Virus record (IMG/VR): IMGVR_UViG_3300011334_000236
Coordinates: 1 to 30,857 of that record
Direction: 5' to 3' (one strand)
Source: a virus
Taxonomy: Duplodnaviria > Caudoviricetes
Length of the DNA stretch: 30,857 nucleotides
Below, piece after piece: positions 3,630 through 29,123 of the stretch; position 1 is the first letter of the stretch; each line of letters starts with the position of its first letter. A program made the position numbers and the translations under genes. The notes beneath the pieces are model-generated. The model searched no databases. It was given only the letters and a program-made list of their open reading frames with translations, and had not been told where the DNA came from.

Positions 3630-4931
3630 TTAACCTACAACATACTGTCCATAACTTGGATTAAGTTCGAAATACATTCGCATCATGATTGCGTCGGCAA
3701 CGTCAGGTGAAATACCTTCGCGGTTCTTGATTACGTCCTTCGGTGTAACCATAAGTTTTCCTTCCACGTCCGCGCGGTGTCGCTTAATCATTTCTAACTC
3801 TTTCACGATTTGTTCCTTGCGTCCGTTCACTAAAATAGTGAGCTTATTTTCCTCAACATATTGAGCCAATTTATAGTAACACTCGCTTTTGAGATTTTGG
3901 TATTGTGGTTGTTTGGGTTTAGATCCATTGACGAACCCCCGACATTTAAGAAAATCAACCACTCCACCACCAACACCGTCTTCATCTGCGACCACATCCT
4001 GTAACAAAATTGAGTGTTCTTTTGTTACGAGGCGAATCTTGTTCACGACCTCATCTAACGACGCTCTGCTCAACTCAATTATGTCAATGATAGTTAACCC
4101 GTGCCAAACGCAGATAATTGTTCTATCCTTTCCAAAACGCGCGATGTCAGCGGTGATATATTTCTTTCCTTCAATTAATTCATTGCGGAACATACGCAGT
4201 AGGTTATCGGTTGAGAACAACTTGTCGGAGTCGTCGTCAAACTCCCAGTTCCCTTCTAAAAGTCTTTTGCGGTCATACTCTGGAAGTTTCTGTAAGTTTT
4301 CAAGATAAGTCTGCGAGATATACGGGTTGTCCGTTGGAAGTGCTTGCACAAAGGCGCGGTCACTTCTTAAATTTCCTTTTTGGTGAGCAAAATAAAAGTC
4401 ATTATACAACCACCCCTTTGAAGGGTTACAAGTCATTAATCCCTTTGCTCTGTCATTAATCAATTTGTAACGTACACGCGACTGCAATATATCGATACAA
4501 CGCTTCGAAACTTCGGCTACCTCGTCAACGAAGTAGTCTGTGATTTCAATCGACCCAAATCTCTGAAAATCGGGATCTGAGGGCATATCTGCCAAATCCA
4601 TAAGTATCGTTTGGCTTCCGTTATACCACTTAATAACGTGGTCTTGTCCATTGTAGGTATAATGAACGTTCGGTTTTAGTCCGTGAAGCGTACAAAGTTC
4701 GAAGAAAGTTTGCATTGTAGATAAGCGTAACTTCTTTAATTCAGCACGACCGATTAAACCCTTCGTGCCAGGGTACTTCAACCGTCTTTTTATTTGCCAG
4801 TCGCAACCTAAAAAAGATTTTCCGCTGAATACACCGCCACCATAAAGAACCTGCGAAATAGGACTTTCATACGAAAGAAGTTCTAACGCTTGCTTTTGTT
4901 TGTCGTGGTAAATTATTTCACGTGCTTCCAT
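3630..4931 (-). CDS. terL: Terminase large subunit (with replacement N-terminus)
   Basis: Walker A GGVFSGKS, Walker B YFVDE, coupling motif TCNP, nuclease motifs ADIARFGKD and SPDVADA. Confidence 0.93.
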   Translation of the reverse strand: MEAREIIYHDKQKQALELLSYESPISQVLYGGGVFSGKSFLGCDWQIKRRLKYPGTKGLIGRAELKKLRLSTMQTFFELCTLHGLKPNVHYTYNGQDHVIKWYNGSQTILMDLADMPSDPDFQRFGSIEITDYFVDEVAEVSKRCIDILQSRVRYKLINDRAKGLMTCNPSKGWLYNDFYFAHQKGNLRSDRAFVQALPTDNPYISQTYLENLQKLPEYDRKRLLEGNWEFDDDSDKLFSTDNLLRMFRNELIEGKKYITADIARFGKDRTIICVWHGLTIIDIIELSRASLDEVVNKIRLVTKEHSILLQDVVADEDGVGGGVVDFLKCRGFVNGSKPKQPQYQNLKSECYYKLAQYVEENKLTILVNGRKEQIVKELEMIKRHRADVEGKLMVTPKDVIKNREGISPDVADAIMMRMYFELNPSYGQYVVG

Positions 4932-5494
4932 GACTTCTTCAAAATTATATCCTTAATTGTGGCTGCGGCAACACCGTATTCTTTGCCTAACATTTCACGC
5001 GTATAAACACGCGGTTTAAATTTCTCGCGTATCTCAACAATATCTTTTTCAGTTAGCTTTGAAGTTCCAATTTCTTCACCTTTTACAAAGTTTGTGCATA
5101 TTGGTTTCTTAATCCTTCCTGCGTTGTAAGAATGCAACGTGTTTTCCTTTGGTGTAACCCACTCCAAATTCTCTACTCGATTATCGTCGCGGTTAAAATT
5201 TATGTGATTGACTTGAATTTTATTTTCATTGTTTTCAATCCACGTTTGAGCAACAACTCGGTGTATTTTGATTGTTGAAAATTTTCCATTTATTAAAAGC
5301 ATTGTGCGATAATAACCTTTCGCATCTTTCGCAGGTTTCATTATTGAAGGTTTGCTTCCGCCTTTATATCCAGTTGTGAGCAAACGTCCTTCGTTACTAA
5401 TCAAATAACGGTTGTTTGTATTTGCAACATACCTCCAAAGTTCATTCGGCAATTCTTCAATGCAAATGTTTAGTTCCTTAAGTGTGTAATTCAT
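4913..5494 (-). CDS. NUMOD4-HNH homing endonuclease with C-terminal HTH
   Basis: NUMOD4 ELWRYVANTNNRYLISNEGRL, HNH HRVVAQTWI...VNHINFNRDDNRVENLEWVTPKEN. ATG at 5494 preferred over TTG at 5542. Confidence 0.92.
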   Translation of the reverse strand: MNYTLKELNICIEELPNELWRYVANTNNRYLISNEGRLLTTGYKGGSKPSIMKPAKDAKGYYRTMLLINGKFSTIKIHRVVAQTWIENNENKIQVNHINFNRDDNRVENLEWVTPKENTLHSYNAGRIKKPICTNFVKGEEIGTSKLTEKDIVEIREKFKPRVYTREMLGKEYGVAAATIKDIILKKSWKHVK

Positions 5495-5498
5495 ACCA

Positions 5499-5506
5499 CT
5501 AATATA
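5499..5506 (-). promoter_or_regulatory. -7-like box TATATTAG in front of the HNH gene
   Basis: Minus strand reads TATATTAG-tggt-ATG. Confidence 0.5.
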
Positions 5507-5529
5507 CACTTTTATTCTTTGGGTGTAAC

Positions 5530-5661
5530 CTACAAAGTACAAAAGATATTCACAGCCCCTGCCGCGCCACCGTATAACAACTGTTCAACGATACTATCGG
5601 TGTTCAGAAAGTTCAACGCTTCAATCTGACGCGGCAGGTATGTTGGTTTATAGGGTGTCAA
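5530..5661 (-). pseudogene. terL: Orphaned original terL N-terminus (43 aa, MTPYKPTYLPRQIEALNFLNTDSIVEQLLYGGAAG|AVNIFCTL)
   Basis: Translated by hand. The TTG start overlaps the upstream TGA. Aligns gap-free with the current terL N-terminus and breaks inside Walker A. Confidence 0.85.
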
Positions 5662-6005
5662 AATAATGATAATTGATTTTCTACAACTGGGTGAAGTTCG
5701 TCTTGAAGAATCTGAATAATACGATCGTATTTCTTCAAGTCATTGTTTTGCTTTACTTGGTGCAATAGCAATTCAAGACCTGCGTTGAACGCTTCGTCTT
5801 TCGTTGTGTATACGTTATGTTCAGCGTGGTAAATTAGCGGCTGCGACCAACCCTGCTCACGTCCTTGAAACCTTATTGCGTAACTCCACAAACCACGTTG
5901 AACAATAGCGGTACTAACCTGCGCTTCATATCCGTTAATGCACTTGTAAGTTTTCAAGATAGGATTCTCGCAGACACCTTGTTCGTTGTAAATGAACTGG
6001 CTCAT
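5658..6005 (-). CDS. Hypothetical protein (ends in QLSLF)
   Basis: 115 aa, ATGA-coupled. C-terminal QLSLF matches the beta-clamp-binding consensus QL[SD]LF. Confidence 0.75.
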   Translation of the reverse strand: MSQFIYNEQGVCENPILKTYKCINGYEAQVSTAIVQRGLWSYAIRFQGREQGWSQPLIYHAEHNVYTTKDEAFNAGLELLLHQVKQNNDLKKYDRIIQILQDELHPVVENQLSLF

Positions 6006-12254: not shown

Positions 12255-12860
12255 ATGAAGACACAAACTGTTCCAATAAACGAAGTAAAGTCCAACCCTA
12301 ATAATCCACGAATAATTAAGGACGATAAATTCAAGAAACTTGTTGCTTCAATAAAAGAACTTCCACAAATGTTGGAGCTACGTCCAATAGTCGTGAATGA
12401 AGATATGGTTGTTCTTGGTGGTAACATGAGATTGAAAGCGTGTAAGGAAGCAGGACTAAAAGAAATACCAATTATCAAAGCATCTGAATTGAATGAAGAA
12501 CAACAACGCGCTTTTATCATTAAAGATAACGTTGGTTTTGGTGAATGGGACTGGGACGCGTTAGCCAACGAATGGGACGCGGAACAATTAGAAGAATGGG
12601 GTTTAGACGTTTGGAAAGGACAAGACGTAGATTTAGATTCTTTAAGTGATGAATTTAGTTTGCCAGAAGGTGATAAAGCACCATTTCAACAAATGACTTT
12701 TACTCTTGCAGACGAACAAGCAACGCAAATAAAAAACGCAATAGCAGATATAAAGCAAACAGAAGAATATAAGTATTGCGAAACAATGGGAAATGAAAAT
12801 TCAAATGGCAACGCACTTTATTTAATAGTAATGCAATGGGCAGAGCAAAAGAGATCATAG
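12255..12860 (+). CDS. ParB/Srx N-terminal domain protein (DNA-modification associated)
   Basis: NPNNPRII, LRPIVVNEDMVVLGGNMRLKAC, IIKDNVGFGEWD. Confidence 0.9.
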   Translation: MKTQTVPINEVKSNPNNPRIIKDDKFKKLVASIKELPQMLELRPIVVNEDMVVLGGNMRLKACKEAGLKEIPIIKASELNEEQQRAFIIKDNVGFGEWDWDALANEWDAEQLEEWGLDVWKGQDVDLDSLSDEFSLPEGDKAPFQQMTFTLADEQATQIKNAIADIKQTEEYKYCETMGNENSNGNALYLIVMQWAEQKRS

Positions 12861-13609
12861 TAAAAGTTATACCTGCAAAAATTGCAAATGAATTTGTAAA
12901 AAAACATCATTATAGCGGCAAAATTGTAAACAATAGTTCTTTACACTTTGGTTGTTTTTTAGATAACAATTTACACGGTGTAATGAGTTACGGCAGCCCT
13001 TTTGATAAAAGCAGAGTTCTTGGAATGGTTCAACCTTGTTTGTGGAATGAAATGCTTGAACTTAACCGTATGGCTTTTGATGATTACTTGCCTAAAAATA
13101 GCGAAAGCAGATGCCTTGCAATAAGTATTAAACTAATCAAAAAAAATGCGCCGCATATTAAATGGCTTCTTTCTTTTAGCGACGGAACACAAAGTGGTGA
13201 CGGAACTATTTATAGGGCAAGTGGTTTTTATTTAACATCAGTAAAACCTAATTCAAGTATAATTGAATTGCCAAACGGAAAGAGAGTTGCAAGTATGACT
13301 TTTACAAAAGGCAAACACATATTATCACAAAATGGCAGAGCAGGTGTTCCAGAAGGAAGTAAGAAAGTTGCAGGGTTTCAACTTCGTTATATTTACTTAA
13401 TAGACAAATCTTGTCAAATTACCGTTCCAATTTTACCATTTAGCAAAATAGACGAAATGGGAGCAGGAATGTATAAGGGCAAAAAAATAACCCTGCAAGA
13501 ACGCAAGGTTATCAATTTGAGCGAAGTGGTCGAATCGAACGCCGACTCTGTTCTGGAAGAACAGCATGTTGCCACTACACTAACTCCGCGTAGTAAAAGT
13601 AAAAAATAA
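12836..13609 (+). CDS. mom: Mom-family adenine modification (GNAT-fold) enzyme
   Basis: FVKKHHYSG, ELNRM...PKNSESR, LLSFSDGTQ.GDGTIYRASGF are Mom-family motifs. Confidence 0.85.
   Translation: MGRAKEIIVKVIPAKIANEFVKKHHYSGKIVNNSSLHFGCFLDNNLHGVMSYGSPFDKSRVLGMVQPCLWNEMLELNRMAFDDYLPKNSESRCLAISIKLIKKNAPHIKWLLSFSDGTQSGDGTIYRASGFYLTSVKPNSSIIELPNGKRVASMTFTKGKHILSQNGRAGVPEGSKKVAGFQLRYIYLIDKSCQITVPILPFSKIDEMGAGMYKGKKITLQERKVINLSEVVESNADSVLEEQHVATTLTPRSKSKK
13520..13589 (-). tRNA. tRNA-Gly(TCC)-like gene with a one-nucleotide T-stem deletion; CCA not encoded
   Basis: GCGGAGU UA GUGU AGUGGCA ACAU G CUGUU CU-UCC-AG AACAG AGUC GGCG UUCGAUU CGACC ACUUCGC U folds as a cloverleaf. Confidence 0.85.
13594..13601 (-). 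promoter_or_regulatory. -7-like box TACTTTTA, 4 nt upstream of tRNA G1
   Basis: TAnnTTTA variant. No clear -33 element. Confidence 0.4.
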
Positions 13610-15627: not shown

Positions 15628-15803
15628 ATCAGGTACTCGGAAGGTACGGTTGGTATCACCTTTTTATGGAAGCATGCGGTCGTGACATAACTAAATTAGA
15701 TTTAATTACGGAAAAAAGTGCTTGGGAGATATTTACATATTTGACTTACCTAATAGACTACAATTATGTCGAACGTACAAAGCTACAACGCGCTTATAGA
15801 TAG
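15515..15803 (+). CDS. -1 frameshift extension of the tail chaperone (gpGT-like)
   Basis: T9 at 15515-15523. The -1 frame is open to TAG at 15803 (FDFAQRTKQHFARLF...RYGWYHLFMEACGRDITKLDLITEKSAWEIFTYLTYL...). Confidence 0.8.
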
Positions 15804-17676
15804 ATTCAAGGCATTTGCCTCTGGACACTTTATTCTTAAGACCTTTTCACATGGTCAGATTGATACGGCAGACTTGGAAAAGTTTACCGAATATCCATTC
15901 ATGCACGTTGTCCCTTCAAACGTTACTTACGCGAAAGGTACTAAGACGTTTAGTTTTCAGATTGTCCTTGCGGATCTTCCACGCGACAAAGACGACAAAG
16001 TTGAGTTTCAAAAGGAAGTGTTGTCCGACCTTCAAAGAATAGCAGAAGATTTGGTTGCCGAAATAACAAACCACCGCGTTTTGTTTGGTGACTTAATCAC
16101 CGTGCAAAATGTCACGTTAGAACCCTTCCTTGAAGAATTTCACAACACGTTAACAGGTTGGACAGTTAGTTTAGAACTTCTTGTTCCTTACTATTGGGAC
16201 GCGTGCAGCATACCAGCTGAATGGAATACATATTTTGAAGGTGGTTCAAGTGGCGGAGAAAGTAACATCTTCAACTTCGCAATGTCTATTCAAGACACAA
16301 ACGGACAGGTTACGCTTGTCAACGATGAGGAAACACCAGCAGCAAACCACTACTACGGAACGAACGCGGAAGGGGTGCGTGGTTGGTACTTGACAACGGA
16401 CAACATCGGGTTGACGTGCGAAACGATAGGAGATTGTCAAACCATTATTGACATCGAAGCGGCTATTGATTTGCTTCAACAAGATGTAATTGACTTGAAT
16501 GCAGATGTTGCATTAAAAGCAAATACTGCCGACATAAGCGCGGTAGGTTTCTCAAATGATTATAACGACCTCGACAACAAGCCAACTATTCCTGCTGCTC
16601 AAGTTAATTCAGATTGGAACGCAACGAGCGGAGTGGCTGAGATATTAAACAAACCGACCATTCCAACAGCAACAAGCGACCTAACGAATGACGGAGAGGA
16701 CGGTGTCAATCCGTTTATAACCGCGCAAGACTTGCCTTCGTTGACAGGTTACGTTCCATACACAGGAGCAACGCAAAATGTTGACTTGGGAACGCACAAC
16801 CTAACCGCTGACCACATAGCGTTAAACGTTAGTCCTTCGGGAGCAGGTTATGTAGTTGGTGCAACGCAATGGAACAACACGATTGGTAGTTCTGAAACGC
16901 TGTTAAAAGGCGGTACTGTTTCTTTGAAAAATGGTGTTGACCTTGTTGCAAGAGTAGTAAACAAAGTAACTCCAAACACAACGCTTACGAAGGCGGCTTA
17001 CCAAGCAGTACGCGTAAGCGGAGCGCAAGGGCAAAGGTTAGCGGTAGCGTTAGCACAAGCCAACAACGATAACAACTCAGCCGACACAATAGGTATCGTT
17101 TGCGAAACGATAGCAACGAATCAAGAAGGCTTCATTCAAACGGTAGGACAACTTGAGGACATCAATACAACGGGTTCACTTCAAGGTGAAACGTGGGTTG
17201 ACGGTGACGTTTTGTACCTTTCTCCGACAACGGCAGGAAGGTTGACTAACATTAAGCCAACAGGCGCAACAGGACACATCGTTGTGATAGGTTACGTTGA
17301 ATACGCTCACGCGAATAACGGTAAAATCTATGTTAAGATAATGAACGGTTGGGAGTTGGACGAACTACACAATGTGAGCATCACAACACCTGCAAACAAC
17401 GACATTTTACAATACCAATCTTCCACGTCATTGTGGAAAAATAACCCTGTTACATATATGTGGACAGTAGACTTTTTGGACTATCAATCCGCTATCTTTA
17501 TAGCACCATACGCGTGTAGTATCAATAGCGTTGCAAACGTGCAGAACTCACCGACAATAACAATAACAAAGAACGGAAGCGCATATACTTTAGGTACTTC
17601 AATCGCGTTAGGTGACGATCTTGTAATAACGGCAAATATTGCGTCAGTAGTTAACTTAAACATATCTCAATTATGA
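15766..17676 (+). CDS. Tail terminator-like N-domain fused to fibre-type domains
   Basis: First ~150 aa (YPFMHV, LEPF.E.FHNTLTGW) resemble tail-completion proteins. Then fibre motifs DYNDLDNKPTIP, QVNSDWNATSG, NGWELDELHNV. Confidence 0.6.
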   Translation: MSNVQSYNALIDRFKAFASGHFILKTFSHGQIDTADLEKFTEYPFMHVVPSNVTYAKGTKTFSFQIVLADLPRDKDDKVEFQKEVLSDLQRIAEDLVAEITNHRVLFGDLITVQNVTLEPFLEEFHNTLTGWTVSLELLVPYYWDACSIPAEWNTYFEGGSSGGESNIFNFAMSIQDTNGQVTLVNDEETPAANHYYGTNAEGVRGWYLTTDNIGLTCETIGDCQTIIDIEAAIDLLQQDVIDLNADVALKANTADISAVGFSNDYNDLDNKPTIPAAQVNSDWNATSGVAEILNKPTIPTATSDLTNDGEDGVNPFITAQDLPSLTGYVPYTGATQNVDLGTHNLTADHIALNVSPSGAGYVVGATQWNNTIGSSETLLKGGTVSLKNGVDLVARVVNKVTPNTTLTKAAYQAVRVSGAQGQRLAVALAQANNDNNSADTIGIVCETIATNQEGFIQTVGQLEDINTTGSLQGETWVDGDVLYLSPTTAGRLTNIKPTGATGHIVVIGYVEYAHANNGKIYVKIMNGWELDELHNVSITTPANNDILQYQSSTSLWKNNPVTYMWTVDFLDYQSAIFIAPYACSINSVANVQNSPTITITKNGSAYTLGTSIALGDDLVITANIASVVNLNISQL

Positions 17677-18506
17677 TAAACAACCTATACATAAAGGCAA
17701 CACCTACAACCGCTGCGGTAACGTGGGGAAGCATAACAGGAACGCTCTCCGCACAAACCGATTTGCAAAGTGCTTTGAACGCTAAACAAGCAACGCTTGT
17801 TAGTGGTACTAACATTAAGACTATCAATAGCACTTCGCTTTTAGGTAGTGGTAATGTTGCAGTTCAACCAACGCTTGTAAGTGGAACTAACATCGTAACT
17901 ATCAACTCTACATCTTTATTAGGTAGTGGAAATATAGCTGTTCAACCAACACTCGTTAGCGGCACTAACATTAAGACTATTAACGGCAACTCGTTGCTGG
18001 GTAGTGGGGATTTAGTAGTAGGAGGAGGTGGAAGCAGTAATCCCTCAACAGTTTATATAAATACAACAGGTGGTGCAACTGTTGGTACTCCATTGACTCA
18101 AACAATTAGTTTGTCAGTTTTAATACCTGCAAACACATTAACAAGTAATTCTATGTTACAAGTTATTTATAAAGTAAAAAGAATTACAGGTGCTGCAAGT
18201 GGTATTACTGGTTCTGCTTTTCTAAACACATCAAATAGTTTATCAGGAGCAATTATAGTAGCAGCTTGTCCCTCAATAGGCACGACTCAAACTTATACAA
18301 CTCTTACACGAAATTTTCATTTAACAGGTGGTAATTTATGTTACTTATCGACTACAGGAGCTCAACTTACAGATTTTGTTACAGATCAAATGATGACAAC
18401 ACCATTCGATATAACTATTGATAATTATTTGTTGTTTTGTATAAGAACAGTGGGTGGAGGTGATACCGCAAGAACTGAAGCAGCTTTATTAACAAAATAC
18501 TTTTAA
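17673..18506 (+). CDS. Tail fibre / receptor-binding protein
   Basis: WGSITGTLSAQTDLQSAL, three 26-aa repeats, G/T/S-rich beta C-domain. Confidence 0.75.
   Translation: MINNLYIKATPTTAAVTWGSITGTLSAQTDLQSALNAKQATLVSGTNIKTINSTSLLGSGNVAVQPTLVSGTNIVTINSTSLLGSGNIAVQPTLVSGTNIKTINGNSLLGSGDLVVGGGGSSNPSTVYINTTGGATVGTPLTQTISLSVLIPANTLTSNSMLQVIYKVKRITGAASGITGSAFLNTSNSLSGAIIVAACPSIGTTQTYTTLTRNFHLTGGNLCYLSTTGAQLTDFVTDQMMTTPFDITIDNYLLFCIRTVGGGDTARTEAALLTKYF
17787..18020 (+). repeat. Three 78-bp tandem coding repeats (Q.TLVSGTNI.TIN..SLLGSG...V)
   Basis: Units start at 17787, 17865 and 17943. Confidence 0.9.
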
Positions 18507-18507
18507 A

Positions 18508-18807
18508 ATGAATATACTAATTAAACCAAACAATATTATTTTCTTCAAAGAAAATAATTATATTTTAAGTTCAGTTGAAATCTTAAATAGCACACAAATA
18601 TTGGCATACACTGACAAAGGTAATGTGTTATTAGATTTGTCTTGTACAATTCAAGATGTATCATTTACCGATATTAATAATTTTATTAGTGCGTTAGGAA
18701 TTGTTGAAATAATTCAAGAACCAACGCAAGAAGAAATAATTGCGCAAAAAGAAGCGCAACTTCTTGAAATGTTTGAGGAATTGAAGCGACTGAAAGGCGA
18801 TGCCTAA
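18508..18807 (+). CDS. Hypothetical protein (possible fibre chaperone)
   Basis: 99 aa, AT-rich, immediately after the fibre gene. Confidence 0.6.
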   Translation: MNILIKPNNIIFFKENNYILSSVEILNSTQILAYTDKGNVLLDLSCTIQDVSFTDINNFISALGIVEIIQEPTQEEIIAQKEAQLLEMFEELKRLKGDA

Positions 18808-19339
18808 CGAACAGAGCGCACCCAACTTCTTCGCTGTGGTCAATGACATGGCGAAACGCTTTGTTGAGTTGATGCAGTCCGACTACCGATTGAAGCGGAA
18901 GGTGGGACGCAACTACACGAACGCGGTGTCAAGTGGTACGCTCGTAAAGTCGTTAGCTTATAGGTTGAAGATAAAAGGAAAGTCAATAGACATTTCAATC
19001 TACGCAAAGGGCAAAGCGTCGCAATACTTTCTTACACGTGAGAATGGACGCAGAGCAGGAGCGACACCGCCACCAGTAAGCGCAATTCTTGATTGGATGC
19101 GATTGAAGCCTATCAAGTTACGCGACAAGGAAAGCGGTAAGTTTAAGAAGCCAACGGAAGCACTCAAAAGACAAGTGGCTTTTTTAATTGCTCGTAAAAT
19201 AGGCAAGGAAGGAATAAAAGGGTGGCACGCGTTCGACTACGCTATGGAAAACATTTGGGACGAATACGAAGCGAAGGTGGTCGAAGCATACGGAAAAGAC
19301 TTCAACGCAGTTTTAGAAAACCAACTAAAAGACATTTAA
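18800..19339 (+). CDS. Neck/tail-completion protein (HK97 gp10-like)
   Basis: SSGTLVKSL, ENGRRAG..PP..AILDW, AFLIARKI..EGIK. Confidence 0.65.
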   Translation: MPNEQSAPNFFAVVNDMAKRFVELMQSDYRLKRKVGRNYTNAVSSGTLVKSLAYRLKIKGKSIDISIYAKGKASQYFLTRENGRRAGATPPPVSAILDWMRLKPIKLRDKESGKFKKPTEALKRQVAFLIARKIGKEGIKGWHAFDYAMENIWDEYEAKVVEAYGKDFNAVLENQLKDI

Positions 19340-19344
19340 TAAAT

Positions 19345-20580
19345 ATGGCAATTACAATAGACGACCAACCTTACCAATACACACCTATCGGTCAACGGCT
19401 GATGATCGTGTGCAGTTCAACCAACGTGACAAACGCAGGCTTTCGTTTCGTGTTTGACTTCGGTGCTTTCCAAGTCAACGTACAACCCAACGCTTCGAAC
19501 AAAGGAATACTTGACCTTGCACCGATATTTAGAGAGCAGTTGAAGCACGAGGCAGGCGCAGCAAACGAAGGCATTAACGACGAATATAAAAGTGTTGCGA
19601 ATATTAGTTGCACGATAAAAGAAGGTTGGTTGATTGACGGAGTATTCACGGTAAGCGGTAGCGGAATGGCTGACATTGACGATGTGTACGCTTTCCTCGC
19701 TGAATACCAAGTAAGCGACGGTTACAAACCTAATCCAAACACACGATACGGAACAAATAGCATAGGCAAATACTTGTTAAGTGAGCGTACGACTGACACG
19801 CACAAATGGAGCGAAGCACCTGCACGCGGATTGTCTAACGACTGGGTGTACATACCAACACGATTAGCTGACTTTGGACAGTTGTATTCATTAAACAACA
19901 ACGGACTTTTAGTTGACAACGACGCGACTGATTTATTTGTGTCTACTTACGACAACAGCAACACTTTGATTGAAGCGACAAACTACACTTTGTTCACCGA
20001 CTTAAACGGTGTTTCTCGTTTGGGTGCATATCCACAAAACTTAATCATTGACGGAGCAGACTTTACAAATGTCAAATACTACACGATACAAGCAGGAGCA
20101 TCTATTGCACCGCCCATTTACACACCTTCCTCACGCGTGTATTGTTTTTACCTTGTCGCTGACGATTGCCGTTTTGACAATGTGCGTTTGGGTTGGACAA
20201 ATACTTGCGGCGGTGTGGATTACTTCAACTTTACGAAGAAGTCGGAACTATCCTACAACTACGACAGAAAGCAATACCAAAAAGTAGTTGGTCAATACAA
20301 CACCGCAGCATTCTCATTTAACACATGGGACAGAGGAACAACCGACCGCTATGTGAACACGACCAAAGGATTACAAATAAATAGCGACTGGATAAGCGTT
20401 GGAGAATTTGAACTATTGCAAACGCTTTGTCGTTCTAACGACGTGTTCATAATTGGTGACGATACAACAATGACACCTGTTCTTGTGGACACACAGAACT
20501 TTGTTATCAAGGACGAAAGATATTCAAAACTTTACAACGTTACTTTGAACCTTAAATACTCACAACCTGTTGGCTTATGA
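19345..20580 (+). CDS. Distal tail / baseplate-type protein
   Basis: W.N..GG.DYFNF and INSDWI...E..LLQ.L..S motifs, precedes the hub. ATG at 19345. Confidence 0.6.
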   Translation: MAITIDDQPYQYTPIGQRLMIVCSSTNVTNAGFRFVFDFGAFQVNVQPNASNKGILDLAPIFREQLKHEAGAANEGINDEYKSVANISCTIKEGWLIDGVFTVSGSGMADIDDVYAFLAEYQVSDGYKPNPNTRYGTNSIGKYLLSERTTDTHKWSEAPARGLSNDWVYIPTRLADFGQLYSLNNNGLLVDNDATDLFVSTYDNSNTLIEATNYTLFTDLNGVSRLGAYPQNLIIDGADFTNVKYYTIQAGASIAPPIYTPSSRVYCFYLVADDCRFDNVRLGWTNTCGGVDYFNFTKKSELSYNYDRKQYQKVVGQYNTAAFSFNTWDRGTTDRYVNTTKGLQINSDWISVGEFELLQTLCRSNDVFIIGDDTTMTPVLVDTQNFVIKDERYSKLYNVTLNLKYSQPVGL

Positions 20581-23462
20581 TGAACGAAGTAATACTAACG
20601 TTAACCGATAGCAACGGCAACGCGTCAACGATTGACCTCTACGAAAATGAGAAGATGCACCTCAACTACAAGTTCACGGATCTCACGAACTTTAGTTCTG
20701 TCGGTAGCTACTCTCAGGAGTTTCGCATACCAGCAAGCGCAACGAATGTAGATTTCTTCGGTGCTATTTTCAACGTTAACTTCAACGGTTGGTTTGACTT
20801 CCGAAAGAAGGTGACGGCAAACTTAACGGTTAACACTATCCCAATAGCAAGTGGTCACATTCAGGTGAAGAAACTTTATTGGCAGAGTGGAAAGTTGTTC
20901 GAGTTTGAGGTTGTTTTCTTTGGTGAAGTTCCGAATCTTTCACGCTTACTAAACGAAAAGAAACTTCGAGATATTGAAAGTATCGTTGCAGGTGACTTGG
21001 ATTACGACTTGCTTCACGCTAACGTTGAGACACCACCTAACGACAATACTATTTTAACGCTTTGCGATAAGTGGAACTTAACAGCAACAAACATAGAGGG
21101 ACAAGTAATTTATTCTTCTGATATTCCTCATTCGCTTAAAGTAGGACACTTGACACCTGCGGTTAAGGCTTACTATTTGTTTGACCAGATACTTAAAGAC
21201 GCAGGTATTCAATGGGCAAGTGCGAACTTATTTGATATGCTCGACAACGTGTATGTTCCATTTGTCAATGGTCAGTATCTTGACGGAGAAAACGGAATGA
21301 ATAATATAACGTCAAACGTAGGTCTTGCGGCTAACGTAAACAACGTGCCTTCAACAGCTTCAAACAATACAATTTCACTTTACACATATTTTACTGAATA
21401 CGAAGATCAAGGTAATAATTGGAGCGGTGGAATTTATACTGTTCCGTATTCAGCACAATATACATTTCGCGTTTGGATAAACGGACAAGCAACACGCAAC
21501 AACACAAATACCGACCTTTCAAATACTATTCTAACGGTTTTATTTGAAGTTAACGGAAGCGGTTTAATAGAATTAGAACAAATAAATTTTATTTCACAAA
21601 CAGGAACACCAACAAGCACAAATATAACAGCCGATTTTCTAAATACACTAACACTTCAAGAAGGAGATGTATTGCGTATTAAATGCGCGTTGAGTACAAC
21701 TGCTGTTGGAATAGGTGCAGAACCTTCTATTGATATTGATTTTTACGGAAACGCAAACATTGATTATACAGGAACAGGTCTTGAACTTGTAAGCGTATCA
21801 ACGCAGTTATACGGAAACCAACCTGTTTACATGAGCTTCAACGCTCCAGACATGAAGCAAATAGATTTTATCACGTCTATTCAAAAGATGTTTAACCTTG
21901 CCTTTGTTCCCGACCGTACGCTTCCAAACACATTACGCATTGAACCATTAGTTGAATACATCGGAAGCGGAAATACTTTGGATTGGACTGAGAAACTTGA
22001 CCTTTCAAAAGACATAACGTACTACCCGACAACAGACCTTCAAAAAGCAAAGTTCACGTTCACATACACCGAAGATTCAGACTATTACAATAACGTCTAC
22101 AAAGACAACGGACACATCTTCGGAAGCTACGAAGTAACGGAGAACGATTTTGAAGTGATTAACGAGTTCGCAACTGGCGAGGAAAAGGTTGAGTTAGCAT
22201 TTGCACCAACACCTTCACGCGCAGTTGAAAATACCGATGTTGTCGTTCCTCGTTTTATCAATGGCGAAGGACAATTCGTGCAACCAAAACCACGCATACT
22301 TTACTACTTCGCAGACTTCTTTGTTAATATGTACGACGAAGTTTCCGATAGCGTAATTGTAACGGCTGTTAAATGTTTGAATAACTATTCGACAATGAAC
22401 GCAAGCGTAGGGGATTCAGACCTAAACTTTGCGCCCGAAGTACCGCTTCACACAATCATTGCACCGCCATACAACAACCTTTACAATCGTTGGTGGAGAA
22501 ACTACTACCGTGAACTTTACGATGGACAGGCGCGCATCTTAGAGGGTATGTTCGCACTAACGCTAAACGACATATTCACCTTTCAATGGTCAGACAAAAT
22601 ATGGATAGTTGATTCTTGGTGGCGCGTGTTGGACATTGAAGGTTACGTCGTAGGTGAGCAGGATATGACGAAGGTCAAGTTAATTCGTATTTTGGACATA
22701 GACAACGACTGCGACATCTTACCAATCACCGCCAACCTTGACCAAACAATAAATTGGGAAACACCGAACGGAGATCCTGCGGTAGTCACCGAAGACTGTT
22801 GTCGTCGCTTTGGCTACTATTGGAACTCTGCGAAGAACAATTGTTTCTCAGTACCAAACATTGGTACACGTTCATTCATTACATCGGAAGCACCAACGTT
22901 AGCACCAACACGCTTCGGTGCGCCTGTTAACTTCGGAGCGTCGGTATCACAACCAGTAAGGTCAATAAGTACCGATTATGTAGTGACTAATTTCGATAGA
23001 ACAATTTTACTTACTGACTTAGCCGCAGATATTGACGTTTACCTTCCGTCAGCACAGGCAACGAGAGGGACAATAATCAGCATAAAGTTAGCGAGTGACG
23101 ATTATGGCGCAACGCTTCACGCATACACAGGACAAAAGATTGAAAGCGCAATAACGTACACAATAAAAACAAGCGGTAGTGTAGTGACTTTGGTTAGCGA
23201 CGGCAGCAACTGGAAGATTGATAGCGAAAACGACAACACAATAACGTGGACTATTGACTTTATGAGCAGTTTAACGGCTACCGTTTTCGCTCCTTACGAC
23301 TTAATCATTAACAAGATTGACAACGTCAAGAACAGTCCTGTTGTAACCATTACAGACGACGGCAGTCCTTATACTTTGGGAACTAACATAGCGGTTGGAA
23401 GCGCTATTGCTTTCACCGCAAACACCGCATCTGTTGTTAATGCAATAATTGAAAGAGCATGA
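20577..23462 (+). CDS. Tail tip/hub protein
   Basis: IDLYENE, SYSQEFRIPA, PDMKQIDFITSIQKMFNL, DWTEKLD. 961 aa. Confidence 0.7.
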   Translation: MMNEVILTLTDSNGNASTIDLYENEKMHLNYKFTDLTNFSSVGSYSQEFRIPASATNVDFFGAIFNVNFNGWFDFRKKVTANLTVNTIPIASGHIQVKKLYWQSGKLFEFEVVFFGEVPNLSRLLNEKKLRDIESIVAGDLDYDLLHANVETPPNDNTILTLCDKWNLTATNIEGQVIYSSDIPHSLKVGHLTPAVKAYYLFDQILKDAGIQWASANLFDMLDNVYVPFVNGQYLDGENGMNNITSNVGLAANVNNVPSTASNNTISLYTYFTEYEDQGNNWSGGIYTVPYSAQYTFRVWINGQATRNNTNTDLSNTILTVLFEVNGSGLIELEQINFISQTGTPTSTNITADFLNTLTLQEGDVLRIKCALSTTAVGIGAEPSIDIDFYGNANIDYTGTGLELVSVSTQLYGNQPVYMSFNAPDMKQIDFITSIQKMFNLAFVPDRTLPNTLRIEPLVEYIGSGNTLDWTEKLDLSKDITYYPTTDLQKAKFTFTYTEDSDYYNNVYKDNGHIFGSYEVTENDFEVINEFATGEEKVELAFAPTPSRAVENTDVVVPRFINGEGQFVQPKPRILYYFADFFVNMYDEVSDSVIVTAVKCLNNYSTMNASVGDSDLNFAPEVPLHTIIAPPYNNLYNRWWRNYYRELYDGQARILEGMFALTLNDIFTFQWSDKIWIVDSWWRVLDIEGYVVGEQDMTKVKLIRILDIDNDCDILPITANLDQTINWETPNGDPAVVTEDCCRRFGYYWNSAKNNCFSVPNIGTRSFITSEAPTLAPTRFGAPVNFGASVSQPVRSISTDYVVTNFDRTILLTDLAADIDVYLPSAQATRGTIISIKLASDDYGATLHAYTGQKIESAITYTIKTSGSVVTLVSDGSNWKIDSENDNTITWTIDFMSSLTATVFAPYDLIINKIDNVKNSPVVTITDDGSPYTLGTNIAVGSAIAFTANTASVVNAIIERA

Positions 23463-23665
23463 TAAATAATTTTCAAAATAAAGCGCACTCAATGGTCGCT
23501 TGTTTAGAGTTCATTAAGTTGAATATCAAGACGAAAGGTAAGAGTGGAATAATGGCTAACGGCAAACGTAAGTTGGAAATGTGGAAGCACTACGCTTGGA
23601 AAGTTACTCGTATTTCGTTAAACGTAGCGTTTTGGATATTTATACTTTATAAACTACTCTCGTAA
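23459..23665 (+). CDS. Small protein with C-terminal TM
   Basis: 68 aa, coupled on both sides, just before the tape measure. Confidence 0.65.
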   Translation: MINNFQNKAHSMVACLEFIKLNIKTKGKSGIMANGKRKLEMWKHYAWKVTRISLNVAFWIFILYKLLS

Positions 23666-25695
23666 TGGCGAACAATATAGATTTTAACGTTAGCACCAAC
23701 GCGGTAACTGTCCTTAATCAGACGGCAGACGCAGCAGAAAATACAGCAAAAGGATTTACTTCTGCAAAAGCTGAACTTCGTGCGCTGAATAATCAGTTGC
23801 TTACAATGGATCAAACGAGCGACGCATTTAAGAAAGCGTCTGCACGTGCTGCCGAATTGAAGGACAACATTTCCGACTTAGGTGCAGAGATTAGCGCCAA
23901 CGCTGGTAACGCATTCGAAGGTCTTTCGAACAACGTTGGTTTGTTCGGTTCACGTCTTATGGACTTGGACTTGAAAGGTGCAGGTCAAGCGTTGAGCGGA
24001 ATGGGTGCAGCAGTTGGTCGCATTGATTTTAAGACAGTAAAAGACGAAGTAGGTGGTTTGGTTAAAGGATTAGGTAATCTTGCTTTATCGGTTGTTTCCA
24101 ATCCATTCTTTTTGATTGCAGGAACATTGGCGGCTATTGCTTACAACTACAAAGACATTGCAAAGTGGGCAACGCAAACATCACGTGAACAACAAAACCT
24201 TGCAAAGGTAACAGGTGAACTTAATGAAGCAACTCAACAAGAACTTGTAAAAGGAGCGCAGAAAATTACGCAAATTGAAGTCTTGACAGATAGAGTTAAA
24301 GACAATAATTTAACTGAGAAAGAAAGACGACAGGCGTTAAGTGATTTAGAAACAATGTACCCAGCGTACTTTGCAAATATCAATGGAGACATCAACGACA
24401 CGGAAGCGTTAAACGCGGCTAAAGAAAAGTTAATTTCAAACATTAAATCGGAAGCCAAAGCAAACGCTGCAAAGTCATTGCTTGAAGCGGAATATGCAAA
24501 GAAAATTGCTTTAGAAACAGAAATAAATAATAAAAAAGGCAAGTTTTCACAAGAGCAAATAAACGAAGCAATTGAAGCAGCTCGTTTTTCTCAACAAACA
24601 TTTTTCAAAGAAGCAAATCAAAACTTAAATGATTGGTGGGACGGAACAGAAGGAATAGGAAAGGCAAGTCTTGACCTTGAAGAAAGTATGCAACGTATTG
24701 CATATCTTGAAAATGAAGCAACATCAGCTGTTCTTGCTAACGTAAACACCGAAGTAAAAGCAATTCGTGAAAAAACAAAGGCGGCAAATACAGCAGCGGA
24801 AGCTGAAAGAGAAAAGAAAGAGCAAGAGAAAGAGAAAGAACTTGAAGCTAACGCAGTTAAAGCTGCAAAAGAAATAAAACAAGAACAAGACCTTGCAGCC
24901 GCTAAAATTAAAGTTCGTGAAGATTACATCAAAGCAAATCAAAGCGCGCAAGCAAATGAACTTTATGAATTAGAAAAGAAAAAAGAACTTGAACTTCAAA
25001 CGTATGAAGGTGACGAACAAGACAAGATTTTAATCATTGAGAAATATCGTCTTGCAGAAATTGACATAAATACTAAATACGACGATGCCGCACTTGAACA
25101 ACAACTTGCAGCAGACGAAAAGAAAAAAGCAGCAGACGAAAAGGCGAAGCAAGATGAACTCGAAAGACAAAAACAATTTGACGCTGACAAACTCGCAGCA
25201 GAACAAGCCTTAACAGACGCTAAATTCTCTCTTGCTTCTGCTTCGGTTGACTTGTTAGGTACGCTATTCGCAAAAAACAAGAAAGCGGCAGACATTGCGT
25301 TTGCACTTGACAAGGCTTTGGCTATTGCGCAAGTGGTTGTAAACACACAACGAGAAATTAGCGCATACAATGCAAACCCTGTTTGGTCTTTATCTCCAGA
25401 CGGTGGTGCTTCAATAAAGATTCCTGCAATTATTGGCGCAAAGATTCGCGCTGCTGCGTCCATTGCTACAATAGCAGGAACGGCAATAGGTCGCTTTGCA
25501 GGTAATGGCGGTGGAACTGGAGCAGGTAGTAATGGTGGCGGTGGAACAACTGCTCCTTCACCTGCAAACTTTGACTTTATCAGTCAGCAACCCAACCAAC
25601 AACCACCGCTACAAGCGTACGTCTTAGGCGGTCAAGTGAGTAGCAACTTAGAAGCACAACAGTTAATTCAAAACCAATCACGATTAGGAGGATAA
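23665..25695 (+). CDS. Tape measure protein
   Basis: 676 aa, A/K/E/L-rich helical, hydrophobic segments, C-terminal QAYV...VSS..EA. Confidence 0.85.
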   Translation: MANNIDFNVSTNAVTVLNQTADAAENTAKGFTSAKAELRALNNQLLTMDQTSDAFKKASARAAELKDNISDLGAEISANAGNAFEGLSNNVGLFGSRLMDLDLKGAGQALSGMGAAVGRIDFKTVKDEVGGLVKGLGNLALSVVSNPFFLIAGTLAAIAYNYKDIAKWATQTSREQQNLAKVTGELNEATQQELVKGAQKITQIEVLTDRVKDNNLTEKERRQALSDLETMYPAYFANINGDINDTEALNAAKEKLISNIKSEAKANAAKSLLEAEYAKKIALETEINNKKGKFSQEQINEAIEAARFSQQTFFKEANQNLNDWWDGTEGIGKASLDLEESMQRIAYLENEATSAVLANVNTEVKAIREKTKAANTAAEAEREKKEQEKEKELEANAVKAAKEIKQEQDLAAAKIKVREDYIKANQSAQANELYELEKKKELELQTYEGDEQDKILIIEKYRLAEIDINTKYDDAALEQQLAADEKKKAADEKAKQDELERQKQFDADKLAAEQALTDAKFSLASASVDLLGTLFAKNKKAADIAFALDKALAIAQVVVNTQREISAYNANPVWSLSPDGGASIKIPAIIGAKIRAAASIATIAGTAIGRFAGNGGGTGAGSNGGGGTTAPSPANFDFISQQPNQQPPLQAYVLGGQVSSNLEAQQLIQNQSRLGG

Positions 25696-25698
25696 AAC

Positions 25699-26283
25699 AT
25701 GAACAAAAAAATTAAAGTAATTGAGTACGGAGTAGACGACGAAGGTTTGCTCGGAGTATTCGCAATCAGCGTAGTAGAACAACCTGCAATAGGTGTCGAT
25801 TTCGTTGCGTTAAGCGAACAACACACGGTAAAGTTCAAAGAAGATTTCAGAGGTCTTTTATACGGCGCTTTGCTTATTCCTGACCAACTCATTTACAGAC
25901 GCAACGACAAGACCGAAGAAGAATACTACGTTAAGTATTCAAAGGACACCATTCGCTCAATTGCTTACAACTACTTAAAGCAAAACATGACGAACAACGC
26001 GACAGTTGAACACGCGAAAGTTGTCGACGGTGTTTCGTTGGTGGAAACGTGGATCATTGAAGGCGAAAACGACAAGTCTAAGAACTTCGGGTTTGACCTT
26101 CCAGAAGGCACTTGGTTCGGTTGCATGAAAGTGGACAACGAAGAAGTGAAGCAACAGATTCAAAACAAAGAAGTATTAGGTTTCTCTATTGAAGGGAACT
26201 TCCTTGCCGAGAAAGAAATGTATTTAAGCGAACACGTTAGCACTTTGCTCGAAGAATTAGACGCAATACTCAAAGGCGAGTAA
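25699..26283 (+). CDS. Prohead protease (XkdF-like serine protease)
   Basis: AISVVEQPAI, GALLIPD..IYR, ATVEH, PEGTWF, GFSIEG. Confidence 0.85.
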   Translation: MNKKIKVIEYGVDDEGLLGVFAISVVEQPAIGVDFVALSEQHTVKFKEDFRGLLYGALLIPDQLIYRRNDKTEEEYYVKYSKDTIRSIAYNYLKQNMTNNATVEHAKVVDGVSLVETWIIEGENDKSKNFGFDLPEGTWFGCMKVDNEEVKQQIQNKEVLGFSIEGNFLAEKEMYLSEHVSTLLEELDAILKGE

Positions 26284-26459
26284 TGAACATCGAAGCAGGG
26301 GGGTTCTTAAAGGTCGAGCTATTCAACGACGACGCTACCCTGTTTCTCAACGCACTCACCAAGATAACGAACGAGAGCGGTAAAATGGGGTTCAAGTCTT
26401 ATGGATTGAGCGAAGACGAAATGAAGACGCTAAACACGATATTGGATTCATTAGGATAA
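26283..26459 (+). CDS. Small hypothetical protein, 58 aa (MNIEAGGFLKVELFNDDATLFL...)
   Basis: Translated by hand. TAATG coupling to the protease. Confidence 0.7.
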   Translation: MNIEAGGFLKVELFNDDATLFLNALTKITNESGKMGFKSYGLSEDEMKTLNTILDSLG

Positions 26460-26542
26460 AAAAAACGAGGGGTAACTACTCCCCTCGTCAAACCTAAAAA
26501 TCAAAATCAACCTATGAAAAGCCGAATTGTGAAACAAATATA
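26458..26542 (-). ncRNA. Putative antisense sRNA with own promoter and terminator
   Basis: TATATTTG box (26542-26535), ~40 nt U-rich segment, hairpin ACGAGGGG-N8-CCCCUCGU, U-run. Confidence 0.65.
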
Positions 26543-26585
26543 CAGGTTTTTCTATTTAGGAACTAAACATTTAATAAACACTTAT

Positions 26586-27155
26586 ATGAACTTAAGAGAA
26601 AAAGTTAACGCTCTTTTCGCAAAGCACAATGTAAGCCTATCAGCTGAAGAAGTTGTTGAGGTGAAGCAAATGGTTGAAGCGATTTTAGAGGACGGAACAA
26701 GCATCTACTCGGACAGCGACACTTGGGCAGCTGGTGTTCGTGTATTCGCAAAGGACGCAGAAGGCAACGAGGTTGTTGTAGCGGACGGAGAGTACAAGAC
26801 AGCAGAAGGAATCATTGTTGTTGTAAGCGGTGGTCTTGTTGCTGAATTAAAGCCAATGGAAGAAGAAAGTCCAGAGGTTGAAGTAATCATCGAAGAAGAA
26901 CAAGCAACAGAGGTTGTTGCAGATTCTTTCAACGCAGAGGTTGAAGGTCTTTTGTCTTTGGTTGCTAAGTTAGAAAGCGAACTTGCTGACATCAAGAAGG
27001 CAAACACCGAACTTTCTGCAAACGTAGAGAAGTTGAGCGCACAACCTGCGGCAACATCAATCAAAGAAGTTAAACAATCAAAAGTAAGCGCACCTGCGAA
27101 GTCTTATAATAAGATGAGTGCAGAGGAGCGTTTCTTATTTCACTTAAAAAAATAA
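26586..27155 (+). CDS. Capsid scaffolding protein
   Basis: Acidic, ADGEY motif, C-terminal coiled coil, between protease and capsid. Frame open from 26514. Confidence 0.7.
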   Translation: MNLREKVNALFAKHNVSLSAEEVVEVKQMVEAILEDGTSIYSDSDTWAAGVRVFAKDAEGNEVVVADGEYKTAEGIIVVVSGGLVAELKPMEEESPEVEVIIEEEQATEVVADSFNAEVEGLLSLVAKLESELADIKKANTELSANVEKLSAQPAATSIKEVKQSKVSAPAKSYNKMSAEERFLFHLKK

Positions 27156-27171
27156 AAAAACACAATAAAAA

Positions 27172-28074
27172 ATGGCTACTACCACTTCATTAACTACTAC
27201 CTACGCAGGTAGAGAAGCAGCAGGATACATCCGCGCTGCATTTTTAAGCAACGAATCACTTGCTGCTGTTACTTTCAAAGAGAACATCGAGTACAAACAA
27301 GTAGTTCGCAAATTAGTTGATTCTATCACTTTCGCTAACGCAACTTGTGACTTCACACCAACTGGAACTGTTACTCTTACTGAGCGTATCTTGACTTTGG
27401 AGAAATTCCAAGTTCACAGACAAATGTGTAAGAAAGATTTCTTGGCTGATTGGGAAGCTAAGTCTGAGCAAAACGGAAACCTTCACGCTTCATTGACTGA
27501 CGCTATCATTGCTAACGTTTTAGCAGGTGTTGCAGCAAACAACGAAGTATTGATATGGCAGGGTGTTAACGCAACTGCTGGTCAGTACGACGGTTTCGAA
27601 ACTTTGTTTTTAGCTGACGCTACTGTTCTTGACGTTGCTACTCCAGAGGCTATCACTTCTGCAAACGTAATCGAAGAAATGGGACGTTTAGTATTGACTT
27701 TACCAACACGCGTTCGTCGTGCTACTGAGAAGCCTGTTATTGCAGTTTCTTCTAACGTTGCTGAAGCATACAGAAGCGCTATCTTAGGTCTTGGTGGTGG
27801 ATACTACCTTTATCAAGGAGAATCAGTTGTAATGAACTGGCAGGGACAGTATGACGTTATCGAATGTCCTGGTATGTCTGACGACACAATGGCTTTCTAT
27901 CAGAAGTCTAACCTTTGGTTCGGTACTAACTTACTTGACCAATGGAACAACGTAGCAGTTTTGGATATGTATGCACATGACCTTTCTGACAACGTTCGTT
28001 TTGCTGCTTCATTCTTCGCAGGTGTACAATACGGATTCGGAAACGAAATCGCATTCTACCAATATACTGCCTAA
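27172..28074 (+). CDS. Major capsid protein
   Basis: TTTYAG..A..YI.AA, TCDFTPTGTVTLTERIL, KSNLWFGT.LL. Follows the scaffold. Confidence 0.85.
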   Translation: MATTTSLTTTYAGREAAGYIRAAFLSNESLAAVTFKENIEYKQVVRKLVDSITFANATCDFTPTGTVTLTERILTLEKFQVHRQMCKKDFLADWEAKSEQNGNLHASLTDAIIANVLAGVAANNEVLIWQGVNATAGQYDGFETLFLADATVLDVATPEAITSANVIEEMGRLVLTLPTRVRRATEKPVIAVSSNVAEAYRSAILGLGGGYYLYQGESVVMNWQGQYDVIECPGMSDDTMAFYQKSNLWFGTNLLDQWNNVAVLDMYAHDLSDNVRFAASFFAGVQYGFGNEIAFYQYTA

Positions 28075-28102
28075 TCTCAACCATTCTAACCCTTGCATAT
28101 AT

Positions 28103-28134
28103 AGAGGTGGTGGCGTAAAATCCACCCCTCTTTT
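28103..28134 (+). terminator. Intrinsic terminator after the capsid gene
   Basis: AGAGG(T)GGTGG-cgtaaaat-CCACCCCTCT followed by TTT. Confidence 0.65.
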
Positions 28135-28157
28135 GTGCTAATAAAAAACATACAAAT

Positions 28158-28664
28158 ATGGCATGTGAATTAAGCACAGGTTTCACACTCGATTGCAAAG
28201 ACGGCATCGGTGGTATTAAGAAAATCATTCTTTGCGACACGGTTACTTCGTTGACTTTTGACGCAAACGAAATTGTTACTGCTATCGTTGGTCCAGTTGC
28301 AGGTGATTTGTACACATACGAATTGCCAACGCAAACAGGTTCTTTCGAAGAAACAATTAATTTCAACCGTGATGCAGGAACTATTTTCTACACGCAGACG
28401 GTAAACGTTATGTTAAACAAATTGAGCGCTCCAAAGCGTTTAGAGTTGCAAACAGTTGCACAAGGTCGCCCTGTTGTTTTCGTTAACGATTCCAACGACA
28501 ATTGGTGGGCTGTTGGTTACGAGTTCGGTGCTGACCTTTCAACAGGAACAGCAGCGACAGGAACAGCACTTGGAGACATGAATGGTTACACACTTGCATT
28601 TGTACACGAAACTCCAAAGAGAGCGTACAAATTGAGCGGTACTCCTTTGTCAATCCTTGACTAA
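28158..28664 (+). CDS. Major tail tube protein
   Basis: MACELSTGFTLDCKDGIGGIK, GTIFYTQTV, TGTALGDMNGYTL. Confidence 0.75.
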   Translation: MACELSTGFTLDCKDGIGGIKKIILCDTVTSLTFDANEIVTAIVGPVAGDLYTYELPTQTGSFEETINFNRDAGTIFYTQTVNVMLNKLSAPKRLELQTVAQGRPVVFVNDSNDNWWAVGYEFGADLSTGTAATGTALGDMNGYTLAFVHETPKRAYKLSGTPLSILD

Positions 28665-28679
28665 ACAAAAAACTTTTAC

Positions 28680-28708
28680 ACATGTAGGGACAAAACGTCC
28701 CTACGTGT
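28680..28708. terminator. 12-bp intergenic hairpin after the tail tube gene
   Basis: ACATGTAGGGAC-aaaac-GTCCCTACGTGT, one G-U pair, weak U-tract. Confidence 0.55.
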
Positions 28709-28739
28709 TGTAATTTTAGCAAACAAATAAAAGGATAGA

Positions 28740-29123
28740 ATGGTTTATTTGAATACAAATACTGCGAATCAATATGCGTGGCTTTCGTTAGACGAAGGTC
28801 GCCAATACTTCAACGTTGCATTCACTTACTACCTTCTTATTTTAACCTACGAAATGACGGGTGAACAACTTGCTCAGGTCGTAGAGGTGATAACAGAAAA
28901 CGAACGTGTTACTAAAATACGTTTGACAACAGTTGGTCTTGTTGACGCTGGTAAATACAAGTACGATGTGTACGGACAAAACAGCGCGGTGAATTTAGAT
29001 CCGACAGACGCTTCCGTAGTTGGTCTTGTTGAACGTGGTTCAATGATACTTCAAGACGGAACAATTTACTTCGACGTTTCTTCGCCAACGATTCCCGTTG
29101 ACGTAATTTATACAGGTGCATAA
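28740..29123 (+). CDS. Small beta-rich virion protein (possible head-closure)
   Basis: GKYKYDVYGQ.S..NLDP...GLVERG. Lies between tail tube and portal. Confidence 0.5.
   Translation: MVYLNTNTANQYAWLSLDEGRQYFNVAFTYYLLILTYEMTGEQLAQVVEVITENERVTKIRLTTVGLVDAGKYKYDVYGQNSAVNLDPTDASVVGLVERGSMILQDGTIYFDVSSPTIPVDVIYTGA

Follow-up and report, generated by a model that had tools for sequence, protein, structure and literature searches.

Organization of the terL locus

The stretch of viral DNA analysed here, referred to as the window, is a complete phage genome of 30,857 bases with direct terminal repeats, and matches to it were found mostly in sequencing runs from rivers, lakes and other freshwater sources. 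Its large terminase gene, terL, is nearest to those of Flavobacterium, Bacteroides, Cellulophaga and Polaribacter phages (34-44%), which makes a Bacteroidota host likely. The terL region (3630-6005, minus strand) ends a replication-side gene block, the portal and structural genes (15766-30810) run in the opposite direction, and no terS gene was recognized adjoining terL. Elsewhere in the window, positions 12255-13609 carry a ParB-like gene followed by a gene of the Mom DNA modification family, and in relatives DNA methyltransferase-like genes are swapped in and out just upstream of terL.

All features of the locus lie on the minus strand. The gene preceding terL (5658..6005, 115 aa, function not assigned) is one among several interchangeable genes of a variable region, and its TGA overlaps the TTG start of a 43-codon open reading frame (5661-5530), a coupling already noted in a preliminary description of this DNA. 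Most of that frame (5553..5661) is the 5′ end of the resident terL allele, termed A, up to its Walker A codons (YGGAAG-G); we refer to it as the stub. A read-through tail (5530..5552) runs to a stop codon and encodes a peptide that is not conserved, the corresponding tail in locus L086 stopping earlier. Behind the break lie a leader of ~60 nt (5495..5552), a gene for a free-standing, I-HmuI-like HNH endonuclease of 193 aa with an intact HNH motif (4913..5494), and the working terL (4931-3630, 433 aa), whose first bases overlap the HNH gene by 19 nt (4931-4913), as described previously. The working gene is itself composite. Its codons 1-215 (4287..4931), comprising the whole ATPase domain, constitute a replacement 5′ half, termed allele B, with an altered Walker A motif, YGGGVFSGKS (4815..4844), in which GxxxxGKS is kept and the Ala-Gly codons of native loops are absent; its 3′ half, the nuclease domain (3630..4286), is resident and common to allele A. 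A river DNA run provided one independent 933-nt contig that spans 4692-5624 with 0 differences, showing that the cassette junctions are not an assembly artefact.

The HNH endonuclease gene

The HNH gene is its own open reading frame, with its own start and stop, outside any intron or intein. It matches Pfam HNH_3 (E 2.5e-7), PHROG 59 (E 2e-40) and PDB 1u3e (E 1.7e-10), which we take to be the homing HNH I-HmuI, and by the tests that can be run on sequence it appears to belong with the free-standing HNH homing endonucleases of the I-HmuI type. The gene is optional at this site, as close relatives carry empty terL alleles, and it is under purifying selection: dN/dS is 0.05 over 11 copies, a set from which a frameshifted twelfth (L025/L087) was left out. 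The HNH was not encountered in any cultured phage, the best matches being below 60%, and a GTDB scan returned 30 loci, of which the best match (L535) is an intein-nested copy. When relatives were drawn from the best 80 of 220 viral and the best 80 of 367 metagenome matches, the closest among them were all at terL, and the 114 of 161 HNH loci with no terL match are nearly all less than 50% identical.

Extent of the replaced terL segment

Allele B (YGGGVFSGKS) is present in 45 of the best-matching 80 (of 595) related viral loci and allele A (YGGAAGGGKT) in 34, the remaining locus being incomplete. Through residue 216 the two alleles are ~50% identical, and beyond it most bins are at 75-100%; all 146 diagnostic nucleotides fall within codons 1-215, the last of them at codon 215, and three loci (L043-L045) switch between alleles earlier, near codon 170-180. 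In a tree of 45 rows the ATPase half of the window terL is placed in the B clade (99/97), beside a sister lineage described below as lineage 2 and far from allele A. Its nuclease half is 99% identical in amino acids to that of the A-locus L047 over 197 columns, with 92-100% in bins from residue 217, and in a nuclease-half tree of the same 45 rows (a quick version, midpoint rooted) the window mixes with A alleles. The two trees conflict, and together with the confinement of diagnostic sites to codons 1-215 this identifies the replaced part as the whole ATPase domain. The preliminary description had envisaged a recoded start of 35 N-terminal residues; at the window locus a swap of that size is rejected, and the recoded-start model survives in lineage 2, where the swap is the first ~35 residues. 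It had also named an entirely foreign terL as evidence against its reading, and half of that is found here, the ATPase half being foreign and the nuclease half resident.

The composite gene appears to be functional. It is 92-97% identical to stub-free alleles and has its own start and a complete Walker A motif, and strong purifying selection on allele B (dN/dS 0.025) indicates that B works as a terminase. A gene in pieces of the Aeh1 nrdA type was considered and rejected, because the downstream frame is a full terL and the two fragments are not both needed. In sequence, allele B resembles the native terL of lineage 2 with SAG changed to GVF.

The stub and its break point

The first 30 codons of the stub match the N-termini of 34 intact terL alleles (77-97% in amino acids, among the best 80 of 595 loci), and 93 nt are 96% identical to the best of these, L064 and L053, so that the likeness to terL is not due to chance. 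A recount from the sequence likewise reproduces the reported 11 of 25 identities between the stub and the working N-terminus up to YGG. Relatives that lack the HNH and begin (M/L)TPYKP...YGGAAGGGK were predicted and do occur, two of them (L048 and L050) directly behind the same upstream gene. Deletion of 4826-5555, said to regenerate the canonical motif, does yield YGGAAGGGKS, but this product is chimeric. The intact allele has YGGAAGGGKTKF instead, and the motif of the chimera is found in 0 of 534 loci.

In the window, allele-A homology extends to about 5553, and the break point is identical in 12 of 12 HNH-bearing copies, A homology ending each time at YGGAAG-G. The stubs themselves are varied. 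Their best-matching A alleles differ from copy to copy (89-100%, the L084 stub being identical to L077), mean identity is 84.6% among stubs and 82.1% among A alleles, and no stub of an HNH-bearing copy has a frameshift before the break. Varied stubs with a fixed break are as expected if homing renews the stub from the intact alleles of recipients; ordinary recombination could also suffice to produce this diversity. The genes before terL differ from phage to phage, and with the upstream DNA so variable the stub is the sole dependable homology on that side, from which we infer a role as the left homology arm.

Stubs also occur without the endonuclease. In five HNH-free loci (L018, L019, L029, L031 and L033) an allele-A stub of 16 codons is followed by a small gene and then allele B, an arrangement shared with the HNH-free stub of L199. 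L080, also HNH-free, has 31 allele-A stub codons fused in frame to the 3′ part of the upstream gene.

Leader sequences and the question of splicing

The insert was previously described as almost wholly coding. With the HNH ATG correctly placed at 5494, ~60 non-coding nt follow the break. A motif within this leader, ATCTTTT.T ... GTATATT[AT]G (window 5495-5552), is kept in all three cassette lineages and is possibly an operator or promoter element. The promoter box of the earlier account is present as TATATTAG at 5506-5499 and is likely a promoter; its reading as a Bacteroidota -7 element follows a consensus that we assume.

The earlier conclusion that the locus carries no intron or intein signal stands. 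Rfam returned 2 chance matches over 4500-6000 (E 7.5-8.2), and the leader RNA shows no significant hairpin (z -0.27, with 75 of 200 shuffles folding equally well); on these grounds a group I intron or other structured RNA was rejected. A group I intron with an HNH open reading frame was rejected for the lack both of a ribozyme core and of exons that rejoin to an intact gene. Intein models TIGR01445 and TIGR01443 had no match in the window terL or HNH and did match L101, L103, L106 and L108; an intein or split intein was rejected because the splicing regions are absent from both genes and the tail of the stub measures just ~10 codons. No stub-terL joint was seen in contigs of 4 out of 24 sequencing runs, contigs being a weak test, and one contig from an RNA library, of uncertain RNA status, spans 4831-5574 without a joint.

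Linkage of the endonuclease to allele B and probable scars of its loss

The preliminary description asked whether GGVFSGKS always accompanies the HNH, and had named common occurrence of this loop without the HNH as a finding that would refute its reading. Such occurrence is plainly the case: an exact scan for the B loop found 53 loci, 7 with HNH and stub and 46 without the HNH. The converse holds, as the cassette HNH is absent from all allele-A loci. The replacement terL start codon is written inside the tail of the HNH gene: the B start, MEAREII, corresponds to the HNH tail WKHVK* read in a shifted frame. Comparable WKH tails also close free HNHs that have no linkage to terL. Among the 46 HNH-free B alleles, 5 retain the exact HNH stop-tail KHVK* and 9 a decayed form, and the other 32 have no scar beyond the last codon. 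For the 14 scarred alleles, and for those only, the scars suggest secondary loss of the HNH rather than independent origin, and loss would be the simplest reading. B alleles with and without the HNH are equally diverse (dS about 0.7-0.8) and thus give no sign of a recent sweep; a co-conversion-like tract and varied stubs are observed, and a sweep signature is absent. Cassette, allele A and HNH-free B co-occur in one sample, X6.

Sister lineages, altered loops and inteins

Related cassettes are found in two further lineages. In lineage 2 the stub ends YGGS, the new gene reads YGGAASGGKS and empty alleles read YGGSAGSGKS, and the new terL differs from empty alleles only in aa 1-35. The break in this lineage (YGGS|) is independent and lies 3-4 codons from that of the window lineage. 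Lineage 3 has the HNH in front of a swapped ATPase whose loop is YGGGVYGGKT, compared with the native FGGAAGGSKS, and the stub is absent, so a stub is not required.

Across the three lineages, with duplicates removed, the cassette HNH precedes 0 of 30, 0 of 17 and 0 of 41 Ala-Gly loops and 9 of 44, 7 of 11 and 14 of 20 altered loops. The claim that the HNH accompanies only altered P-loops is borne out by these totals (0 of 88 and 30 of 75), from which HNH-negative loci with less than 400 nt of upstream sequence were also left out. Among the native loops counted for lineage 3 are 7 from a neighbouring lineage and 2 that read FGGGAGPGKS. The counts carry no p values, since related rows are involved, pooled from searches that were directed at the HNH and at terL. 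The association is consistent with immunity of the altered loops to the endonuclease and is not an independent proof of it, since low homology alone would keep an HNH and its P-loop linked. Three altered P-loops point to the Ala-Gly codons as a testable target.

More distant HNHs (44-57%) lie in another frame inside inteins at GGSAG|, GGAAGG| and GGSKG|. The cassette HNHs make up a single clade (99/98), nested in a group (90/96) that also contains the intein-nested HNHs. A possible origin of the cassette from an intein-nested HNH was examined through the monophyly of the latter, which 0% of bootstrap trees recover and which an AU test did not reject (p 0.167). The offset between the HNH and terL frames is the same in inteins and cassettes, which we do not count as evidence because ordinary translational coupling gives the same offset.

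Several other arrangements were observed in these searches. L101, L102-L108, L113, L227, L229, L230 and L535 have Walker A inteins whose middle is a stop-free shifted frame of an intact HNH; one terL Walker A intein with an overprinted HNH is in a Flavobacterium MAG, and L103 (terL of 1081 aa) appears to have a second intein. A Flavobacterium-phage-like family, represented by 80 terL loci, includes 7 (L109:3525-3585, L463, L475, L476, L481, L496 and L506) in which an insert of ~35-40 nt, containing a stop codon and a C-run/G-run hairpin, interrupts the Walker A codons, mostly between matching Ala or Gly codons. These are candidate ribosome-bypass elements, and L109 is the only one of the seven with an adjoining HNH. 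L406-L408 carry the altered loop FGGGAGPGKS without the cassette HNH, and L402, likewise without it, has the loop YGGGVYSGKT behind a MEAQ start, possibly a further scar of an HNH tail. In L335-L337, L503 and L232, native-loop terL or terS has an unrelated or distant HNH (about 35%) upstream, that of L232 being overprinted inside another long open reading frame.

Discussion

We propose that the leader, HNH gene and replacement ATPase half constitute a homing cassette whose junction with the resident terL lies at the Walker A codons, and which would cut native Walker A DNA and bring with it a resistant 5′ half, the stub acting as a left homology arm. From sequence comparison we put the probability of this reading at roughly 70%. 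According to the model, the HNH would nick GG-x-AG Walker A DNA of a co-infecting phage, and the linked allele B, having no GG-x-AG, would escape cutting. The HNH and an altered 5′ terL may have originated in a lineage-2-like phage. At first entry the right end would have recombined at the first shared stretch, after codon 215, and the left end would have been joined without homology at the cut site, so that a stub remained; entry with homology on the right only would account both for the position of the break, which is that of the presumed cut, and for the long swapped tract. In later rounds repair would copy the cassette, with the stub as the left arm and the nuclease half as the right, and the HNH would then often be deleted, leaving a resistant allele B with a scar. 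The phage would keep a working terminase, as the 5′ half that comes with the cassette is complete and has a start codon of its own, and the replacement half likely lets a selfish HNH spread without disabling the phage. In a broader form of the proposal, which we hold to be about evenly balanced between right and wrong, a single clade of Walker A HNHs would have two means of rescue, lying out of frame in an intein or travelling with a resistant duplicate. The latter would make the element a vehicle for ATPase domains, moved between lineages and left behind after HNH loss, and the stub a portable arm.

Could the locus be a neutral mosaic? An HNH-terL module might have been joined by illegitimate recombination at a shuffling hotspot, with an incidental stub and no targeting of Walker A. 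The hypervariability of the region before terL, the occurrence of HNH-free stubs and the absence of a sweep signature would all fit, and low homology by itself can yield linkage. We nevertheless consider this unlikely, as two independent breaks, one in lineage 1 and one in lineage 2, lie no more than four codons apart at Walker A, inteins with related HNHs insert at those same codons, three different altered loops are all without Ala-Gly, and the HNH is under purifying selection. It is also conceivable, if improbable, that allele B is an old standing variant, shaped either by motor function or by a different nuclease, and that the HNH was attached later, homing itself being real. The absence of the HNH from 46 of 53 B loci, 32 of them without a clear scar, agrees with such a history, and so does synonymous diversity that is deep and equal in both B classes. 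However, 14 of the 46 HNH-free B alleles, including the divergent L043-type, begin as a shifted-frame WKHV tail of the kind that ends free HNHs unlinked to terL, and the B ATPase is nearest to lineage 2, which has the same cassette.

We think it very improbable that the HNH is a domesticated terminase helper of the HK97 gp74 type travelling with its ATPase partner. Helpers of this type are described (PMC10448857), and the HNH here lies directly before terL, shows translational coupling with that gene and evolves under purifying selection, but nearly identical ATPases do without it in 46 of 53 loci, and it resembles I-HmuI and has relatives that sit within inteins. Constant presence beside terL, the mark of a helper, is contradicted by these 46 B loci and by all A loci. 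Least credible to us is a chimeric terminase made by joining the stub to the downstream gene through RNA splicing or ribosome bypassing. A break in a conserved motif of the kind favoured by introns and inteins would suit it, and an in-frame join is formally possible; yet Rfam gave nothing beyond its two chance matches (E 7.5-8.2), the ~60 non-coding nt have no significant fold, and the downstream gene comes with a start of its own and an entire Walker A motif. None of 534 loci contained the chimera, and the contigs of 4 runs, like the unjoined RNA-library contig (4831-5574), weakly point the same way.

If the homing cassette is confirmed, a rescue route of the fungal-mitochondrial kind would exist in phages, by which a selfish nuclease invades an essential motif, unspliced, by means of a replacement gene end. 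The population contains, side by side, the empty allele, the cassette with a stub, the cassette without a stub, and the resistant allele with a scar. Such elements offer a possible mechanism for the mosaicism of ATPase and nuclease domains in terL. As terL is a common marker gene for phages, it is also of practical concern that its halves can differ in history, with ~50% identity in one and 99% in the other within one phage group.

Comparison with known systems

Intronless homing with co-conversion, genes split by homing endonuclease genes (HEGs), terL P-loop inteins, out-of-frame intein endonucleases and fungal gene-end duplication have all been described (PMC2988022, PMC10448857, PMC12724721, PMC8393795, PMC7315562, PMC6279837; see also PMC2677866, PMC5050341, PMC10732093, PMC7344957 and bioRxiv 10.1101/2025.01.02.630785). 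In the literature searched, which covered few subscription papers, we found no case in a phage of an HEG that both leaves a stub behind and brings in a substitute for the 5′ part of the gene.

The segF/gene 56, segG/gene 32 and mobE/nrdB pairs of T4 resemble the window in that a free-standing HEG lies by a conserved essential gene, and in intronless homing of this kind flanking sequence co-converts, as in the window cassette (PMC2988022). The T4 HEGs are intergenic and cut hundreds to thousands of bases away (PMC2988022), whereas the window cassette lies inside a gene at its presumed target, with a stub and a duplicate 5′ half from another lineage.

The preliminary description drew a parallel with gene-end duplication in fungal mitochondria, and it is a sound one, as the window carries a diverged copy of the displaced terL end in working position. 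Allomyces atp6 is reportedly a case of this kind, additional to those cited below. In Tremella fuciformis mitochondria, as in the window, a foreign copy of a gene end replaces the resident one (PMC7315562), and later loss of such elements leaves the swapped gene behind (PMC7315562, PMC6279837). The duplications in Endoconidiophora atp6 and cob are C-terminal and organellar and lie beside LAGLIDADG or GIY-YIG HEG open reading frames (PMC6279837); the window differs in being a phage, in its HNH, in the involvement of the 5′ end, and in a swap that can equal a whole enzyme domain.

In genes in pieces such as Aeh1 mobE/nrdA and T4 mobA/gene 60-39, and in fractured genes, an HEG occupies a critical coding region and is not spliced (PMC2988022, PMC2677866), and the 3′ end of the HEG writes the downstream start codon, as it does here (PMC2677866). 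Both pieces of such genes are needed and reassemble as proteins (PMC2988022, PMC2677866); in the window, by contrast, nothing is missing from the downstream gene, and the upstream piece is redundant. The target motif is shared with terL Walker A inteins and with inteins that have out-of-frame endonucleases (PMC5050341; bioRxiv 10.1101/2025.01.02.630785), and the nearest relatives of the window HNH lie out of frame in terL P-loop inteins. Unlike these inteins, the window element has no splicing domains, and function is restored by duplication.
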